Virus record (IMG/VR): IMGVR_UViG_3300023213_000432
Coordinates: 192,001-256,000 of that record
Direction: 5' to 3' (one strand)
DNA from: a virus
Lineage: Duplodnaviria > Caudoviricetes
Length of the DNA: 64,000 nucleotides
The notes under the pieces were generated by a model. The model was not told the DNA's origin. It made no database searches and saw only the letters and a program-made list of their open reading frames with translations. This document shows, piece after piece, positions 29,937 through 36,377 of this stretch. A program made the translations under genes and the position numbers. Position 1 is the first letter of the stretch; the number at the start of each line of letters is the position of its first letter.

Positions 29937-30473
29937 ATGACCCCCCGTCTAATTAGGCTTAGGTTTTGGCAAAAATTAGCCCAATCAATACCTGCTAATC
30001 TTCCCACAGCTCAAGTAACTAAAAATCAACCAGTGAGCGGAACTCCTCCCACTTTTATCGCCTCCGAGTGGTATCCTTCTATTATTATTGGGTGGCAGTC
30101 TAAAAATGTTCCTTGGATTAATGGTTTAACTAGTTTAATCAATACTGCTTTATTTTACACCAGCAACGGACAAATTCATATTCCTTGGATGCGAGCCCAA
30201 AACTTCTTTTTTCAATTGGATCAGATCCCCTCAGTTGATCTACGTAATTTAATGAACTTTACCAAACTTATGTATAATCAAATTTTTACCAATTTAGGAT
30301 ATTCTTATCAACAATCATTAACGCCCCAACAAATAACAGCAAAAGTTAATATTTTGCGGAATAGTCCATTCCTTCTCAATTTATCTTTGACCAACCCAAG
30401 TTCCCAACTAGCGAGCAAAATCGGCGGAAATCTTCGACAATTTATCGTTAATTATTTGTTGCAAATTAAATAA
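29937..30473 (+). CDS. Hypothetical protein (N/Q-rich, possibly virion-associated)
   Basis: Long clean ORF; no catalytic motif recognised. Confidence 0.6.
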   Translation: MTPRLIRLRFWQKLAQSIPANLPTAQVTKNQPVSGTPPTFIASEWYPSIIIGWQSKNVPWINGLTSLINTALFYTSNGQIHIPWMRAQNFFFQLDQIPSVDLRNLMNFTKLMYNQIFTNLGYSYQQSLTPQQITAKVNILRNSPFLLNLSLTNPSSQLASKIGGNLRQFIVNYLLQIK

Positions 30474-30495
30474 TCCATCGTTATATTTTTTCCCA

Positions 30496-31284
30496 ATGTC
30501 CTCCATCAAGCTCAAAGATCGAATCGATTCTTATCGTGAAGCATCTCAATATTATCTCACTCCTCGGCTTCCCATTATCATCTCGGTGAATGGTAGGGCA
30601 TCTTCCAAATTAACATCCCTATTGGATAAGCCATATGATGCCAAATTTGCAGAGTGTATTCTTTCTACGGCTCAACAACTATGTTCCGAGATTGAAGGTG
30701 CAGTTTTGGCGTATCAGCATAATGACGAAATTGTGGTAATAGCTCGAAATGATCAATCTTTAAATACTCTTCCTTGGTTTGATAATAAACTTCAAAAAAT
30801 TTGTTCTATTGCTGCCTCCATTGCTACGGAACATTTTGGTGCTTGTTGCGCTGCAGTAGAGTTAAATTTGTGCGGAGCTTCTCATTTCTTTTCGGAAGTT
30901 TTTGTGGTACCCAACGAAGTGGAAGCTATCAATACCATCATTTATAATCAGCAAAAAAATCTACATACTTCTATTCAGTTCGCTTGCTATTACGAGTTTA
31001 TCAAAAAACATGACAAAAATGCTATTCGAGATATGTTACAGGGATTAAGTATTGATGAAAAGATCGATCTACTCCGTCAAGATTGTGGAGTAAATTTCAA
31101 CGAATACCCAGCGGTATTTCGCAGAGGAGCAGCTATCTATAAAGCTCCAACTTTTACAGAAGAAGGCGGCATTAAAAACAAATGGGTAATTAATAAAGAA
31201 TTGCCAATTTTTTCTAAGGATCAAGTGCTGCTCAATAACATTCTTCGAACTGGAAGCGATATTGTTCGGAAAGAGAGTTTTTGA
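30496..31284 (+). CDS. Thg1-like (tRNA-His guanylyltransferase family) protein with divergent active site
   Basis: DRIDSY..., IIISVNGRASSKLT (cf. RIDGxxFxxFT), AYQHNDEI (cf. YxQSDEI), FDNKLQKICS, FRRG. Confidence 0.8.
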   Translation: MSSIKLKDRIDSYREASQYYLTPRLPIIISVNGRASSKLTSLLDKPYDAKFAECILSTAQQLCSEIEGAVLAYQHNDEIVVIARNDQSLNTLPWFDNKLQKICSIAASIATEHFGACCAAVELNLCGASHFFSEVFVVPNEVEAINTIIYNQQKNLHTSIQFACYYEFIKKHDKNAIRDMLQGLSIDEKIDLLRQDCGVNFNEYPAVFRRGAAIYKAPTFTEEGGIKNKWVINKELPIFSKDQVLLNNILRTGSDIVRKESF

Positions 31285-31535
31285 TGGATTGTTTTAAATC
31301 TAAATGCCCTTGTTGTGGTCACATCATTTATTGGATGGGATCTAATACTTTCTTTGTTAAGATTGATTATCCTGTGTGTTTTCGATGTGGCACTCAAACT
31401 CGAGAACAAGACAAAAGTATTGATCGAGAAAGTATTATTGGGAGAACATATGAGTTAAGGTTGCTAAGAGCTTTGATGGATATTCCTGATATTCACTGGG
31501 ATATTCAAGCATTTATTCATGAGCACAAACATTAA
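31281..31535 (+). CDS. Small zinc-ribbon protein
   Basis: CPCC and CFRC pairs. Confidence 0.6.
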   Translation: MMDCFKSKCPCCGHIIYWMGSNTFFVKIDYPVCFRCGTQTREQDKSIDRESIIGRTYELRLLRALMDIPDIHWDIQAFIHEHKH

Positions 31536-31812
31536 AAAATTGGTGGTATTAGCGGATGCTTTTGAGAAGAAATTGGCAACAGAAAATGCAGGTGAATATG
31601 GTGGAAAAGGTGAATTTGAGTTGCCGTCAGACCATAAAGCTGCAATGGTTTTGAAAAACGGAACATTTTCTTGTGCGAACTGTAAGTTCGTTAATGTTGA
31701 AAAACACGAATGTAATAGTGTTCATTATATTAAATGGAATGGTGAAAGCAGAAAATTACCAAATGCGCCGCTCACTTTTATTTGCTCAGATTGGTTTGAG
31801 CCGAAAAATTGA
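31519..31812 (+). CDS. Hypothetical Cys-containing protein
   Basis: CANC, C, CSDW. Confidence 0.6.
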   Translation: MSTNIKKLVVLADAFEKKLATENAGEYGGKGEFELPSDHKAAMVLKNGTFSCANCKFVNVEKHECNSVHYIKWNGESRKLPNAPLTFICSDWFEPKN

Positions 31813-31822
31813 TGAGTAGGAA

Positions 31823-31850
31823 TTGACAATGCTACATAAATAATTATTAT
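31823..31850 (+). promoter_or_regulatory. sigma70-like promoter for the tRNA cluster
   Basis: TTGACA-N16-TATTAT, 10 nt upstream of the first tRNA-like element. Confidence 0.55.
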
Positions 31851-31860
31851 GTATGTGTGC

Positions 31861-31935
31861 GCCTCGTTAGTTTAACAGTAAAACATGCTGATGTGTATCA
31901 GCAATCGTCAGATCATTTCTGACACGAGGCTCCCA
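31861..31935 (+). ncRNA. tRNA-like element with perfect stems and non-canonical loops (His-GTG or Thr-TGT derived)
   Basis: Acceptor GCCTCGT/ACGAGGC, D GTTT/AAAC, anticodon stem TGCTG/CAGCA with 8-nt loop ATGTGTAT, T stem GTCAG/CTGAC with loop ATCATTT, 3' TCCCA. Confidence 0.7.
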
Positions 31936-31941
31936 AAGTAA

Positions 31942-32013
31942 GCCCATTTCGTATAGTGGTTATTACTTAACTTCGGTAAAGTTGAAAGCTGAGTTCGATT
32001 CTCAGATTGGGCT
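31942..32013 (+). tRNA. tRNA-Thr(GGT) with C at position 33
   Basis: G1-C72, C2-G71, D-loop GG, anticodon stem TAACT/AGTTG, loop TCGGTAA, T arm CTGAG-TTCGATT-CTCAG. CCA not encoded. Confidence 0.75.
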
Positions 32014-32033
32014 CAAACAAACCTACTAATAGC

Positions 32034-32043
32034 TTGATATATA
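32034..32043 (+). promoter_or_regulatory. Recurrent (TT)GATATAT(A/C) motif, candidate phage promoter
   Basis: TTGATATATA 7 nt before ATG 32051; same motif 7-9 nt before several other starts. Confidence 0.55.
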
Positions 32044-32050
32044 GATCGAC

Positions 32051-32389
32051 ATGAACTCGTAGAACCTCAAACTTTATTTAATTATTCGCAAGGATTTGTC
32101 ATCTGGCGCTATCCTCGCTCAAGCTTGCCATGCAGCATTTACATTTAGTTCCGAACATCCTGAAATAGCCAAAGATTGGCTCCTCAATTCCAATTATATT
32201 TGCATTTTAGAAATTGATGATGAAGATAAACTTCAAGAATTGTTGGACAAAGCCAGGCATCTTAACATTCCACATTCCTTGTTTATCGAACCTGATTACA
32301 ATTATTCTCTTACAGCGATTGCTTTGGCACCTACTCTTGCTAGCAAGAAATTATGTCGTGGCTTGCGATTGGCTTTCAAGGATCAATGA
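32051..32389 (+). CDS. Peptidyl-tRNA hydrolase 2 (PTH2)-like protein with in-frame TAG at codon 4 (readthrough candidate)
   Basis: ATG AAC TCG TAG AAC CTC AAA CTT TAT TTA ATT ATT CGC AAG GAT TTG = MNS*NLKLYLIIRKDL, then GAILAQACHA...ICILE...EPD...TAIAL; TAG at 32060-32062. Confidence 0.82.
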
Positions 32390-32398
32390 TGAAGATTT

Positions 32399-32470
32399 CC
32401 GCTCTTGGTATAGTGGCTGTGCTTTCCCATTCTAAACGGGAAAAGCCGTGTTCAAATCACGGAGAGCGGG
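32399..32470 (+). tRNA. Amber suppressor tRNA (anticodon CTA), type 1
   Basis: Acceptor CCGCTCT/AGAGCGG, G73; anticodon loop TT-CTA-AA (CTA 32432-32434) with an A:C mismatch at 31-39; T arm CCGTG-TTCAAAT-CACGG. No CCA encoded. Confidence 0.82.
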
Positions 32471-32478
32471 CTAAATAT

Positions 32479-32553
32479 GGGCGATTAGTTCAGCGATAGA
32501 ACGGGCAATTCTAAATTGCTGCGTCGAAGGTTTGACTCCTTCATCGCCCACCA
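32479..32553 (+). tRNA. Amber suppressor tRNA (anticodon CTA), type 2, Lys-like body
   Basis: Acceptor GGGCGAT/ATCGCCC, A73, encoded CCA; D GTTC/GAAC; anticodon stem GGCAA/TTGCT with loop TT-CTA-AA (CTA 32511-32513); T arm GAAGG-TTTGACT-CCTTC. Confidence 0.9.
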
Positions 32554-32858
32554 ATTTTTCATGAAAACTTCAGAGCTTATCAAAGAACTCCAAGAACTTG
32601 ATCCCAATGATGAGTGTATTTTGTGCATAGACAATCATCCTATTCGCTACATATCTAAAATGCCTTGGTATTGGGATGGCAGAGTTGAAATAATTTCACG
32701 CAATCACGCCCATATCCCCATCAAAGCCGGTTATCCTAATCAAGGTTCCAAAATCTCTTTCCATTACGATACCATTGAAGACGTTCTTATTGATAATCCC
32801 GATATGGGAGTTGGATTTAAGCGGGATTACCCATCAAGGAAAAGTGGAAGAACGATAC

Positions 32859-34080
32859 GTCAATAACTTACGACTAAAGTCGTAAGCTTGTCGCTCATCC
32901 TACCATAAGCAGGATGTTGTTTTTTAATGGCAACAATAGGCTGATTGACAGCAGCCCTGAATGAAATATTTTTAGCAGCATTGAGATCCGCGTTTATAGT
33001 ATAACCACAGGTTTGGCAAATAAAAAGCGCTTGACTTTTCCTGTTTTTCTTATCGCAAAACCCACAGCAAGAGCAAGTCCGAGAAGTGTTTCTAGGATCT
33101 ACCTTGATTACGGGAATGCCTTCTAACCTAGCCTTATACTCGATAAATGCTGTTAACTCTCCAAATGCCCACTTTCCGAATTGCTCTCGTTGTTCTTTGC
33201 GAACCGTTTTCTTGAAGTTATGGAGATCCTCGATAGCGATCCCCATTCCAAGTGCCTTAGCGACTTGAATAATTCGTTTAGCGATAACATGATTGGTGTC
33301 TTTTTTAAATCTACGTTCCTTTCCTGATATGTTCTTTAGTTTCTTTTGAGAAGAGTTGGTATTGAGAGATTGAAGCTTTGCTTTGAGTTTAGTGTAGCGC
33401 TTTCGATTAGCGTCGGTTTTCTCACCAGAGAAAGTAGTTCCTTCTGAGGTGGTTGCCAGATTAACGATTCCTAGATCTACTCCTAGATATTCTTTTACTT
33501 GCTTAGATGGAGGTTCGGGAACATCAATAGAAGCTTGGAGATAGAATTCTTTATTTCGATAGATGAGTTTAGCGGAAGTACGAAGGGATTTTTCAGATAA
33601 TTTCTCATAGAGCTTAGCATATTCTCCGAAAGCAATGGGAATAGGAAGCCTACCGTCTAGAGAAAGAATGGAGATGGTTCCTAACTTTTTCCAATTGAGA
33701 ATGCGGGCATCATATTCTATCGAAGAGTTCTTTTTAAAGGTATGCTGAACTTTCTTATCGATTGTGTAAGAATCGCAAACACGAGAGATAACACGAATAG
33801 CAAACTGGGAAGGAAGATTGAACTTTTGGCGGAGTTCATGGTAAATGTTCTCTTGAACTTTAAACTTACTGAATAAGCGATTGTTAAAACAATACTCGCT
33901 AACCCAATTGCAAGCCGCATTAAACTGATAGATGGAGCGAAGGAGCTGAGCTTTCTGCCCTGAATTAGCGAGTAATTTGACAGAAACGGTTAAGAGCATG
34001 CTATATGGTATATATCAAAGGTTCTTGGAAAATGCAATTCATCCCACGATTAAAATCGTGGGCTTCCTTGCTAAGAGATC
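32859..34080 (-). mobile_element. Non-autonomous IS200/IS605 element copy C (different tnpB subfamily)
   Basis: Right-end hairpin CTTACGAC-TAAA-GTCGTAAG ending TTGAC on the minus strand; left-end hairpin CCCACGAT-TAAA-ATCGTGGG (34043-34062). A CGT on both sides makes the junction ambiguous by 3 nt. Confidence 0.85.
32860..33999 (-). CDS. tnpB: TnpB with intact RuvC D-E-D
   Basis: LGVDLG, IAIEDL, SRTCSCCG...CQTCG, NADLNAA. Confidence 0.95.
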   Translation of the reverse strand: MLLTVSVKLLANSGQKAQLLRSIYQFNAACNWVSEYCFNNRLFSKFKVQENIYHELRQKFNLPSQFAIRVISRVCDSYTIDKKVQHTFKKNSSIEYDARILNWKKLGTISILSLDGRLPIPIAFGEYAKLYEKLSEKSLRTSAKLIYRNKEFYLQASIDVPEPPSKQVKEYLGVDLGIVNLATTSEGTTFSGEKTDANRKRYTKLKAKLQSLNTNSSQKKLKNISGKERRFKKDTNHVIAKRIIQVAKALGMGIAIEDLHNFKKTVRKEQREQFGKWAFGELTAFIEYKARLEGIPVIKVDPRNTSRTCSCCGFCDKKNRKSQALFICQTCGYTINADLNAAKNISFRAAVNQPIVAIKKQHPAYGRMSDKLTTLVVSY

Positions 34081-34266
34081 GTGAAAAAAATTGAAGAGTG
34101 GAGACGGCAAGGACGTGAATTTCAACGAGAAATTAAAAAGAATCCACTAATCAAAGATTTGGGATTGAGACCCAAACGAAAGATCAGTTGGCGAACTCGT
34201 TTGACCAAGTGGCTTCGAAAACTACGGGTAATAGATTGATATTAAAATGGAGCAAATAACAACATA

Positions 34267-34797
34267 ATGCAGAAAGAAACATCAAACCGCATTAGAATAA
34301 ATCATTACATTCGTGTTCCACAAGTAAGAGTGGTGTTAGAAGATGGAACCAGTCCCGGCATCATGGGCACTCCCGAAGCTCTTAAAATGGCTAAAGACAT
34401 GGGTTTGGACATGATCGAAATTAATCCCAAAGCTTCGCCGCCCGTTGTCAAGCTTATGGACTTCGGTCGCCATAAATATAATGAAAAGAAAAAACAGCAA
34501 GAAATCAAAAGGAATCAAAAAGTTCATGAACAAAAAGAACTGTTGCTTCGCCCTAACATTGAAGAACACGATCTGACACACAAACTCAATGCAGCCAAAC
34601 AGTTTCTTGCTGAGGGAAACTCAGTCAAATTTACGGTGCGATTCAGAGGAAGGGAACTTACTCACCCAGAAGTGGGTCGAGACAAATTAGATTGGATTGT
34701 TCAGCAATTGAGCGGATTAATTCAGCCCTTTCCCGTTATTTCTATGGAAGGAAAACTCATGCACATGCTTGTTATTCCAACCAAACAAAAAGCGTGA
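34267..34797 (+). CDS. infC: Translation initiation factor IF-3
   Basis: RINHYIRVPQVRV, PPVVKLMDFG, RPNIEEHD, VRFRGRE. Confidence 0.95.
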   Translation: MQKETSNRIRINHYIRVPQVRVVLEDGTSPGIMGTPEALKMAKDMGLDMIEINPKASPPVVKLMDFGRHKYNEKKKQQEIKRNQKVHEQKELLLRPNIEEHDLTHKLNAAKQFLAEGNSVKFTVRFRGRELTHPEVGRDKLDWIVQQLSGLIQPFPVISMEGKLMHMLVIPTKQKA

Positions 34798-34810
34798 TAT
34801 ATGATACAGC

Positions 34811-35545
34811 ATGCAAGTTCGCACTGGTATTCTGTTGGCAGGAGGTTCAGGAAGCCGCTTAGCTCCCTTAAATTCCCAATTCAACAAGCATTTAATTCCC
34901 GTTTATAATAAATTCATCATTGATTATCCGCTTGCTACTTTACATAGTGCAGGAGTTAAGAATCTAACAGTGGTTTTAGGCGGGCAACATTATGCTCAAG
35001 TAGTCTCTTATTTAAAAGATGGACAACAGTTCGGAATGAATATTAATTATGTTTATCAAGACAAACCTGCCGGACTATCACAGGCTATAAATTTATGTCA
35101 GCCCTTTGTAGAACATAAAGATAATTTTATGGTAGTGTTAGGAGATAATATTTTCGAGAAGCCGGTGACCTTCCAAGATATGGAAGCTCCTGCTCAAATT
35201 GTTCTTCATAAACACCCAGAATTGCACCGATTTGGAGTAGCATCCATTAAAGATAATAAAATTGTTCAAATTGAGGAAAAGCCCAAGGTTTTGCCTGATG
35301 GCTACGATAACTATGCGATTGCCGGATGTTATCTTTTTGATAGTCAGTTCTTCAAATTCTTTACTCATTTGAAGCCGTCATCCAGATTGGAATTTGAAAT
35401 CACAGATATTATCCGAATGTATCATGAACGAGGAAAGTTAGGATATTCTTTTGTGGATGGACTTTGGAGTGATGCTGGAACTCATCAATCTATCAATTAC
35501 GTCAATAACTTTTTTTATCGGAAGGATGTCTCTAATGAAAGTTAG
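34811..35545 (+). CDS. rmlA: Glucose-1-phosphate thymidylyltransferase (RmlA-like)
   Basis: LAGGSGSRLAP, YQDKPAGL, LGDN, EEKP, SSRLEFEITD, WSDAGT. Confidence 0.9.
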   Translation: MQVRTGILLAGGSGSRLAPLNSQFNKHLIPVYNKFIIDYPLATLHSAGVKNLTVVLGGQHYAQVVSYLKDGQQFGMNINYVYQDKPAGLSQAINLCQPFVEHKDNFMVVLGDNIFEKPVTFQDMEAPAQIVLHKHPELHRFGVASIKDNKIVQIEEKPKVLPDGYDNYAIAGCYLFDSQFFKFFTHLKPSSRLEFEITDIIRMYHERGKLGYSFVDGLWSDAGTHQSINYVNNFFYRKDVSNES

Positions 35546-36377
35546 CATTTTAGGAAATGGATTTGTTGCAGATCATTTGCCCTACCACCGGATAACAGAA
35601 CGATTGGATTTTAGTTCTAAACAAATCGAAAATCTTTTAGAAACAGAAAAGCCAGATGTGGTAGTTAATTGTATCGGTAAATGTGGCAATCCTAATGTCG
35701 ATTGGTGTGAAGCTAACAAGGAAATTACTGCTTTGACCAACACCGCCCTACCGATTATGTTGGCAACGGTATGTGCTAAAAAATCCATTCATATGATCCA
35801 GATTGGAAGTGGTTGTATCTTCTTTAATAAGTCGCCTAATACAACTCTCAACGGACAGGTAGAAGTTGATTTGGGCTGGAAGGAAATCAATTTTCCCAAT
35901 CCTCAATCTTATTACTCCAAGACCAAGGCGGCTTGTGATTTTACTATTGGCGAGATGAAAAATGTGACTACTTTGAGAATTAGGATGCCCATCTCTTCCA
36001 AAAATCATCCTCGTAATTTAATTAACAAGCTTCGAGGATATAAACAAGTGATCGATGCTCCAAACTCTATAACCATGATGAGTGATTTAATGCGATGTAT
36101 TGATTGGGCTATTACCACTGGGCAAGTGGGCATTTTTCATGTCACTAATCCACAACCTATTACTGCCGCACAGATTATGAAAATGTACCAAACGTATAAA
36201 CCCGAACACACTTTCGAGGCTATTTCCGAAGGACAGTTAGATAAACTTACCATTGCCAAACGATCCAATTGCCTTCTCAATACCGAGAAGTTACAAAAGG
36301 CGGGTTTTCATATGACACCGTCTGAAGAAGCTTTAAAGCAATGCATGAACGAATATGTTAAAAATTTGAAGGATTGA
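35535..36377 (+). CDS. NDP-4-keto-6-deoxyglucose epimerase/reductase (NRS/ER, RmlD-like fold)
   Basis: GKCGNPNVDWCE, GSGCIF, SYYSKTK, LRIRMPIS, RNLINKL. Confidence 0.85.
   Translation: MKVSILGNGFVADHLPYHRITERLDFSSKQIENLLETEKPDVVVNCIGKCGNPNVDWCEANKEITALTNTALPIMLATVCAKKSIHMIQIGSGCIFFNKSPNTTLNGQVEVDLGWKEINFPNPQSYYSKTKAACDFTIGEMKNVTTLRIRMPISSKNHPRNLINKLRGYKQVIDAPNSITMMSDLMRCIDWAITTGQVGIFHVTNPQPITAAQIMKMYQTYKPEHTFEAISEGQLDKLTIAKRSNCLLNTEKLQKAGFHMTPSEEALKQCMNEYVKNLKD

Follow-up and report, generated by a model that had tools for sequence, protein, structure and literature searches.

In a 64,000-nucleotide (nt) stretch of viral DNA (Duplodnaviria; Caudoviricetes; positions 192,001 to 256,000 of IMG/VR record IMGVR_UViG_3300023213_000432; hereafter the window), a small gene for a protein of the Pth2 peptidyl-tRNA hydrolase fold has an in-frame TAG as its fourth codon and is directly followed by two tRNA genes with the anticodon CUA. 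We consider it probable that the suppressor tRNAs directly after the gene gate the translation of this Pth2-like paralogue. The same pairing of gene and suppressor tRNA is common to dozens of other phages, some of them grown in the laboratory, and most likely, therefore, the protein is made only when the tRNAs override the stop.

In the mechanism that we propose, translation would start at ATG 32051 and meet the UAG at codon 4, and ribosomes would pass only if a CUA-anticodon tRNA inserted an amino acid. The decoder would be the two CUA tRNAs downstream, probably carried on the same transcript. Where release factor 1 (RF1) wins at the UAG, only Met-Asn-Ser would be released; a win for a charged suppressor tRNA would give the complete protein of 111 residues. 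Protein output would scale with the expression, charging and RF1 competition of the phage CUA tRNAs. Because only suppressor decoding of the UAG would yield the full protein, output would be coupled to the suppressor-tRNA activity of the phage. The gate lies in the unstructured N-terminal tail, so any inserted residue would be tolerated and a failed attempt would be nearly costless.

An early stop codon interrupts a Pth2-like gene

The sole possible start of the gene opens a three-codon leader that ends in the TAG. Beyond it, the same frame reads NLKLYLIIRKDLSSGAILAQACHAAF... and ends at TGA 32387-32389, to which a second TGA adjoins (double TGA, 32387-32392). The ATG at 32051, the TAG at codon 4 and a frame running into the PTH2 fold had all been described in an earlier reading of the sequence (the original prediction), and all are present. 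Also borne out is the absence of any ATG, GTG or TTG between TAG 32060-32062 and TTG 32096, the first canonical start downstream. Strand 1 of the fold (KLYLIIR) is encoded at 32069-32089, upstream of that TTG. A protein started downstream would therefore lack strand 1 of the sheet.

Profile and structure comparisons agree on where the domain begins. With the Pfam PTH2 profile (PF01981), whose cut-off is 23 bits, the protein scores 51.4 bits (E=1.5e-13) and aligns over profile positions 1-101 of 115. This match starts at profile position 1, at residue 6, just past the TAG; counted from TTG 32096, it starts only at position 13, with 12 positions lost. A profile built from 60 family members matched the Pth2 chains 2zv3, 1rzw, 1wn2, 1q7s and 1xty (E values from 2e-11 to 3e-6). 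The AlphaFold2 model has a mean predicted local distance difference test (pLDDT) score of 96.0 and a predicted template modelling (pTM) score of 0.89, with strand 1 at residues 3-9 past the TAG. All of its top 13 Foldseek matches are Pth2/Bit1 structures, with template modelling (TM) scores of 0.69-0.81 and a probability of 1.00. These data uphold the claim that an intact fold needs UAG readthrough.

ARAGORN and Rfam both recover the two CUA tRNAs that the original prediction placed after the gene. The first (tRNA A) begins 9 nt past the stop codon of the gene, rather than the 10 nt first given.

The early stop is conserved and the sequence behind it is under selection

Metagenome contigs, viral contigs and cultured phages were scanned for homologues, giving 115 homologous loci (denoted by L numbers) that form 93 clusters at 90% identity. 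We called a gate obligate if no ATG, GTG or TTG occurred from the first in-frame stop to the invariant KLY motif. The original prediction had proposed a search among homologues for a TAG near codon 4 with neighbouring suppressor tRNAs, and this search was positive. An obligate early stop is present in 35 of the 93 clusters, 32 with TAG, three with TGA and none with TAA. Eight further clusters have the arrangement RTG-TAG-RTG (R, A or G). Among the closest non-identical homologues, all 19 have an early in-frame TAG.

The seven relatives for which DNA was fetched (L005, L006 and L010-L014) all share an ATG, 1-3 codons, a TAG and then (N/T)xKLY(I/V)(I/V)(I/V)RKDL. Their proteins (L005-L014) are 58-72% identical to that of the window. 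Past the TAG, codon differences among the window and these seven relatives are synonymous, and K, L, Y, R and D are invariant, which argues that the post-TAG stretch is translated in the frame of the leader. Across 60 sequences, K, L, Y, R and D between the stop and the downstream starts are likewise invariant or nearly so, and the residues between the TAG and TTG 32096 are the most conserved of the protein. Purifying selection evidently acts on the stretch from the gate to the first canonical start.

The leader is more variable. Among 30 obligate-TAG loci, it comprises one codon in six, two codons in three, three codons in 15, and 4-6 codons in six, and it often ends in a Ser codon (13 of 30). 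The shortest form, a start-stop RTG-TAG from which no peptide is made, occurs in 14 cluster representatives. The base 3' of the gate is a purine (A or G) in each of the 30 obligate-TAG loci tallied, as is the A in the window. A purine after an amber codon reportedly favours suppression in E. coli, an observation said to be Bossi's from 1983, and the purine after the gate fits efficient suppression.

The tRNA that follows the gene usually reads a stop codon

A tRNA of any kind was found downstream of the gene in 48 loci. The first such tRNA has the anticodon CUA in 36, UUA in four and UCA in one; it is CUA-like with an odd loop in three and of another type in four. A stop-codon reader is thus the first downstream tRNA in 44 of 48 loci. 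On the upstream side, the first tRNA is CUA in only two of 45 loci, and upstream tRNAs are mostly ordinary sense tRNAs. Suppressors are a minority among all tRNAs of these loci. Of the 32 obligate-TAG clusters, 23 have a CUA-type tRNA in the flank that was fetched; most of the remaining clusters have flanks of only a few hundred bases.

One lineage has exchanged both partners. L065 is nested (100/99 support) among L062, L115 and L070, all of which are TAG-gated. CUA tRNAs stand beside L062 and L115, and the L070 flank is just 109 nt long. The L065 leader reads ATG ACA CCC ATG CAC GAC GCC TGA ATC CCC TCG..., with no alternative start. It is accompanied by a UCA tRNA that agrees in its acceptor, D and T arms with the second CUA tRNA of the sister loci. 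Given a TGA and a homologous UCA tRNA amid TAG/CUA sisters, the stop and the anticodon must have changed together, in what counts as one event. UCA tRNAs are very rare in this set (2 of 171 tRNA predictions for the first 91 loci). With the conservation among homologues, this switch supports the original view of the gene and its CUA tRNAs as a self-contained translational unit.

The closest relatives of tRNA A are the CUA tRNAs of L011, L014 and L098, and those of the second tRNA (tRNA B) are the CUA tRNAs of L010, L011, L055 and L082. CUA tRNAs are closer to one another than to sense tRNAs of any kind. Among sense tRNAs, their best neighbours are spread over 15 isotypes, and no amino-acid identity emerges from similarity. 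The discriminator bases, G in tRNA A and A in tRNA B, together with U35 would presumably fit Gln and Lys by E. coli rules. Some tRNAs directly after the gene are missed or oddly called by ARAGORN (L005 3303-3375, L017 1827-1901, L006 3316-3440). In these tRNAs the anticodon stem that encloses the UUCUAAA or CUCUAAA loop is imperfect, and the tRNA of L006 possibly has a long insert. Since such tRNAs escape ARAGORN, counts of suppressor tRNAs in phages are probably underestimates.

The genome otherwise uses the standard code

The window is part of a single 327,423-base-pair (bp) contig of a huge phage (38.5% G+C; CheckV completeness estimate 76%). By a crude caller of open reading frames (ORFs), 453 ORFs cover 88.6% of the contig and end in TAG (46), TAA (189) or TGA (218). 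Reading TAG as sense raised the coverage from 88.6% to 89.8%, equal to the TAA control. Same-frame joins across a stop were found for 6 of 46 TAG, 22 of 189 TAA and 18 of 218 TGA codons. None of three tests on the contig (TAG as sense, same-frame joins, and a short leader followed by a stop) gave a TAG-specific signal relative to the TAA and TGA controls. Global recoding of TAG is ruled out by the 46 of 453 ORFs that terminate with it and by the lack of any gain over these controls. The genome is thus otherwise of standard code, and the whole-contig counts agree with the earlier statement that the region is not globally recoded.

Ten further candidates for TAG-interrupted or TAG-gated genes in the contig (five sets of two or three ORFs that share a frame across TAG, and five with a leader and a TAG) were translated with TAG as Gln and scanned with Pfam, and no domain was found to span the TAG. 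A pair made up of iscA and an AAA gene was considered as one TAG-interrupted gene and rejected, being two separate genes. The gated Pth2-like gene is the only demonstrable case in the contig. Searches of this approximately 76% complete record did not find a release factor (PF00472), GlnRS/GluRS (PF00749), a LysRS/AspRS-type enzyme (PF00152) or an HD domain (PF01966).

Start signals and cultured mycobacteriophages

Ribosome-loading signals appear to favour the leader start over any start past the stop. In the AT-rich clade, to which the window belongs, the Shine-Dalgarno sequence AAGGA or GGAG lies 7-9 nt upstream of the leader ATG. The window, L010 and L011 have an extended -10 element, spaced 7 nt from that ATG. 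In the window it is TGATATATA, and as originally noted it recurs; the same motif lies 5-8 nt upstream of the ATG at several other genes of this phage genome. From the geometry of TGATATATA, 7 nt and ATG, we infer a leaderless or near-leaderless mRNA at the window gene. In the G+C-rich clade, TTGAC lies 35-39 nt upstream of the RTG in all 14 RTG-TAG representatives. This spacing is that expected for transcription starting at the RTG itself, and therefore points to a leaderless AUG-UAG or GUG-UAG message.

The same module is present in cultured cluster C Mycobacterium phages, including Myrna (L095/L008), Alice (L096 1137-1181) and ScoobyDoobyDoo (L097), all three of which fall in the G+C-rich clade. 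Altogether, more than 200 cultured Mycobacterium phage records contain it, with M. smegmatis as host. The gene is annotated there as 'peptidyl tRNA hydrolase', and its annotated start is the GTG directly after RTG-TAG. The Alice record labels the next tRNA 'tRNA-suppressor (cta)', and that of ScoobyDoobyDoo labels it 'tRNA-Pyl(cta)'; the Myrna record has it as tRNA-Ser, but ARAGORN gives its anticodon as CUA. In cluster C, the RTG is at the position from which transcription by a TTGACA-N17/18-TAnnnT promoter would give a leaderless mRNA. The mycobacteriophage module is thus apparently carried on a leaderless AUG-UAG mRNA, and the annotated GTG start may be wrong. A near-identity search of window positions 30000-36000 against cultured phages gave no match, nor did blastn of each window CUA tRNA against the same phages. 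A look-up of sequencing runs for window positions 31500-33000 listed none.

Alternative explanations

Four other accounts of the early stop were weighed against gating by the phage tRNAs. The stop might be a constitutive attenuator, with low output arising from readthrough by near-cognate host tRNAs and with the phage tRNAs nearby for some other reason, such as a tRNA array. These genes do sit in tRNA-rich regions, and one TGA-gated phage (L108, below) has no UCA tRNA. A neutral tRNA array, on the other hand, would not account for a stop reader as the first downstream tRNA in nearly all loci and a CUA tRNA in so few upstream positions, nor would an attenuator account for a gate codon that switched to TGA jointly with the tRNA anticodon in L065. 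UGA is naturally leaky and TAA is the least leaky stop; TAA is never used as a gate, yet TGA is not preferred either. We regard this account as improbable. Still less probable is a start after the stop, at TTG 32096 or a non-canonical codon, with ATG-AAC-TCG-TAG as a tiny upstream ORF that tunes initiation. Gene callers do place the starts of all close homologues downstream (eight homologues in a large protein database are called at 89-100 residues), and a GTG or ATG directly follows the TAG in the mycobacteriophage-like clade. Yet all eight of these calls lack strand 1 or more, the very residues that are most conserved. The TTG itself is not conserved, being TTA in L006 and L014, and the codons just after the TAG (AAC, GAT, AAA) are not near-cognate starts. 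The Shine-Dalgarno and promoter geometry, moreover, serves the leader ATG.

A functional minigene, as the original prediction had suggested for Met-Asn-Ser, would make readthrough secondary: peptidyl-tRNA drop-off from the short ORF would load the cell with Pth substrate. Two- and three-codon minigenes such as lambda bar promote such drop-off, and the leader has three codons in the window and its nearest relatives, often ending in Ser. The idea fails on conservation, as the leader ranges from one to six codons and the 14 start-stop representatives would form no peptidyl-tRNA at all, so that a tripeptidyl drop-off product is not a conserved feature. What the family does conserve is the stop codon, together with the protein encoded behind it. 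We hold this account to be very unlikely, on a par with the downstream start. An assembly error or a decaying pseudogene can practically be dismissed: the same stop occurs in the same place in dozens of independent assemblies and in Sanger- or Illumina-finished cultured phages, and the protein behind it is under strong purifying selection.

Several observations weigh against gating by the phage tRNAs or leave part of it unaccounted for. The mycobacteriophage-like clade often has a GTG or ATG directly after the TAG, with a Shine-Dalgarno-like GGAGG 7 nt before it. Such members could start there with no need of readthrough, and the GGAGG-like motif 7 nt before the annotated GTG makes this possible in the cultured cluster C phages as well. 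The complete L108 phage (G001, IMG/VR, 191,623 bp) has a TGA gate and no canonical start, and no UCA tRNA was found among the 37 tRNAs of its genome. L045 has no canonical start for 36 codons past its TGA, and its tRNAs are two CUA with no UCA. In the genome of the window phage there is no excess of other TAG-gated or TAG-interrupted genes, and two suppressor tRNAs would be kept for perhaps one codon. The tRNA-model score of tRNA A is low (34.7 bits), and its anticodon stem contains a mismatch (A31-C39). Finally, a CUA tRNA also follows the gene in several family members that start at an ordinary ATG (L082-L089), so the link between gene and tRNA is independent of the gate.

A specialised paralogue with a possible role in suppression

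On this comparison of loci, the association of the paralogue with suppressor tRNAs is wider than the gate, and the protein probably acts on suppressor tRNAs or on what follows from their action. The protein itself departs from canonical Pth2. It shares the fold of archaeal Pth2 (2zv3, 1xty, 3erj) and of human Bit1/PTRH2 (1q7s), with TM scores of 0.77-0.81, and keeps the Q..H motif of helix 1. In contrast, the gated clade lacks the catalytic Lys of the G-K-x-A-A-Q loop, which we take to be Lys18 of S. solfataricus Pth2. At the aligned position the window protein has Ala and members of the clade have Ala, Ser or Leu; the GK insert is missing. The original prediction had pointed out the Ala and the replacement of DAG by EPD, and the absence of Lys proves to be clade-wide. 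Within the clade, E76-P77 is nearly invariant and D78 invariant. HMMER aligns E76 with the canonical Asp of DAGxTQ, and places a 4-residue deletion in the clade after the equivalent motif.

A canonical PTH2 is encoded elsewhere in the genome, at contig 173184-173564 (126 residues, 85 bits). It has an ordinary ATG, intact GKMAVQ and DAGLTQ motifs and 22% identity to the gated protein. It has no tRNA neighbour. A second Thg1-like gene lies directly after it, the pair spanning contig 173184-174316, beyond the window, and this brings the PTH2/Thg1 sets of the phage to two. Myrna likewise has two PTH2-family genes. Because a canonical ungated PTH2 is present in the same genome, the gated gene is predicted to encode a divergent, specialised paralogue and not a general hydrolase. 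For this reason, the role first assigned to it, as the factor that recycles peptidyl-tRNA, is not supported.

If the gate is real, the paralogue might handle a by-product of suppressor-tRNA action or limit that action, and be made in proportion to it. This is the purpose that we favour, tentatively and at somewhat less than an even chance. A narrower version, which we think rather unlikely, casts the paralogue as a dedicated partner of the suppressor tRNA that hydrolyses the acylated suppressor tRNA or the readthrough product. Gene and tRNA would then act together as a self-limiting 'readthrough homeostat', in which more suppression would yield more enzyme and suppression would in turn be lowered or detoxified. 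If true, this homeostat would be a portable two-part module, found from mycobacteriophages to huge phages, and would account for the retention of 'orphan' suppressor tRNAs by phages with the standard code.

Relation to known systems

The closest parallel is with recoded phages. In crAss-like, Lak and other phages, TAG is read as Gln or TGA as Trp by the phages' own suppressor tRNAs, and suppressor tRNAs occur in some standard-code phages as well (Borges et al., 10.1101/2021.08.26.457843). As in those phages, a phage suppressor tRNA would read an in-frame stop, and expression of a gene would depend on that tRNA. The recoded phages, however, have in-frame stops in many genes, mainly late and lysis genes, whereas the window phage has a standard code and one small gated gene beside the tRNA, with the stop always within the first few codons. 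Like the window gene, prfB (release factor 2) has an early in-frame stop and encodes a translation-related protein whose production depends on competition at that stop. It differs in needing a +1 frameshift and in that its product reads the stop; in the window gene, leader and protein share one frame, and the decoder would be a tRNA. Feedback from product to stop is a property of prfB; in the window gene, any such feedback would be hypothetical.

Two phage systems share single features with the module. The lambda bar minigenes are, like AUG AAC UCG UAG, very short phage ORFs with a peptidyl-tRNA hydrolase theme. Here, by contrast, the leader varies in length and is AUG-UAG alone in many relatives, and the ORF continues in frame into a conserved protein. 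The A1 protein of Q-beta is also a phage protein that requires a stop to be read as sense. Q-beta, however, relies on a host tRNA at a leaky UGA to add a C-terminal extension at a fixed low rate, whereas here the tRNA is the phage's own and the stop is N-terminal.

In jumbo phages, PTH2 has been described together with Thg1 and IF3 (Iyer et al. 2021, PMC7824862), a description that the Thg1 and IF3 neighbours in the window match; that paper does not mention an early stop or a tRNA link. Our literature search returned no paper that links a Pth2-like gene to suppressor tRNAs or notes the early stop. Gene callers truncate the gene N-terminally or start it just past the stop. For the suppressor tRNAs of standard-code phages, we know of no target so far. 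The module would give such tRNAs one target, a single conserved gene with a matching stop in its first codons. It would also be the smallest natural case of expression controlled by a virus-encoded suppressor tRNA, and may show how whole-genome recoding of a stop codon starts. Growth of the more than 200 carrier phages on M. smegmatis makes the module directly testable. A short, context-optimised and tRNA-dependent gate would, in addition, be a ready part for synthetic biology.

Organisation of the locus

The features of the locus are listed in Table 1. A possible promoter ahead of the tRNA cluster could drive the whole unit of tRNAs, Pth2-like gene and suppressor tRNAs. The tRNA-like gene that follows it has the anticodon arm GCUGA-UGUGUA-UCAGC, and Rfam tRNA matches also occur upstream of tRNA-Thr in L005 (1086-1156) and L006 (285-355). 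A tRNA-Thr precedes the Pth2-like gene in L005, L006, L010, L011 and L014 as well. Downstream, the small conserved ORF (MKTSELIKELQELDP...) probably shares a transcription unit with the tRNAs, and the same ORF follows the tRNA in L005, L010 and L011.

Table 1. Features of the Pth2-like locus and its flanks, in window coordinates
Feature	Position	Strand	Basis or remark
Thg1-like tRNA 5'-end repair enzyme	30496-31284	+	upstream flank of module
Sigma-70-like promoter (TTGACA, 16 nt, TATTAT), putative	31823..31850	+	consensus scan, 11/12 matches; pattern match only
tRNA-like gene, abnormal anticodon loop	31861..31931	+	Rfam tRNA model, 37.9 bits; missed by ARAGORN
tRNA-Thr (GGU)	31942..32014	+	ARAGORN; Rfam, 45.3 bits
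Extended -10-like motif TGATATATA	32035..32043	+	7 nt upstream of ATG 32051; putative function
Leader ATG AAC TCG (M-N-S)	32051..32059	+	sole possible start for the Pth2-like gene; ATG at 32051-32053
In-frame TAG (gate), next base A	32060..32062	+	codon 4; read from sequence
Pth2-like coding region, 108 residues past TAG, stop TGA	32063..32389	+	Pfam PF01981, AlphaFold, Foldseek
Suppressor tRNA A, anticodon CUA, discriminator G	32399..32471	+	ARAGORN; Rfam, 34.7 bits
Suppressor tRNA B, anticodon CUA, discriminator A, encoded CCA end	32479..32553	+	ARAGORN; Rfam, 57.7 bits
Small conserved ORF, 101 residues, no Pfam family	32561..32866	+	begins 7 nt past tRNA B
TnpB/IS605 OrfB gene (Cas12f1-like TNB and OrfB_IS605 domains)	32860-33999	-	between tRNA unit and IF3
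IF3, both domains	34267-34797	+	downstream flank of module

The order Thg1, tRNA-Thr, Pth2-like gene, CUA tRNA and IF3 is conserved in L005 and L006. The DNA fetched for L011 stops at the CUA tRNAs, and up to that point, starting from Thg1, the order is the same. L005 and L006 have no TnpB/IS605 OrfB gene between the tRNA unit and IF3, so the gene in the window resembles an insertion.

Two further RNA genes were predicted by ARAGORN in the contig outside the window. These are a tRNA whose anticodon has four bases (agca) and a phage transfer-messenger RNA (tmRNA) with the tag ANDNNAFVQMPLAA, at contig complement 17637-17709 and 23279-23637, respectively. In L006, L014, L017 and L115, tmRNA genes lie within about 2 kb of the Pth2-like gene.

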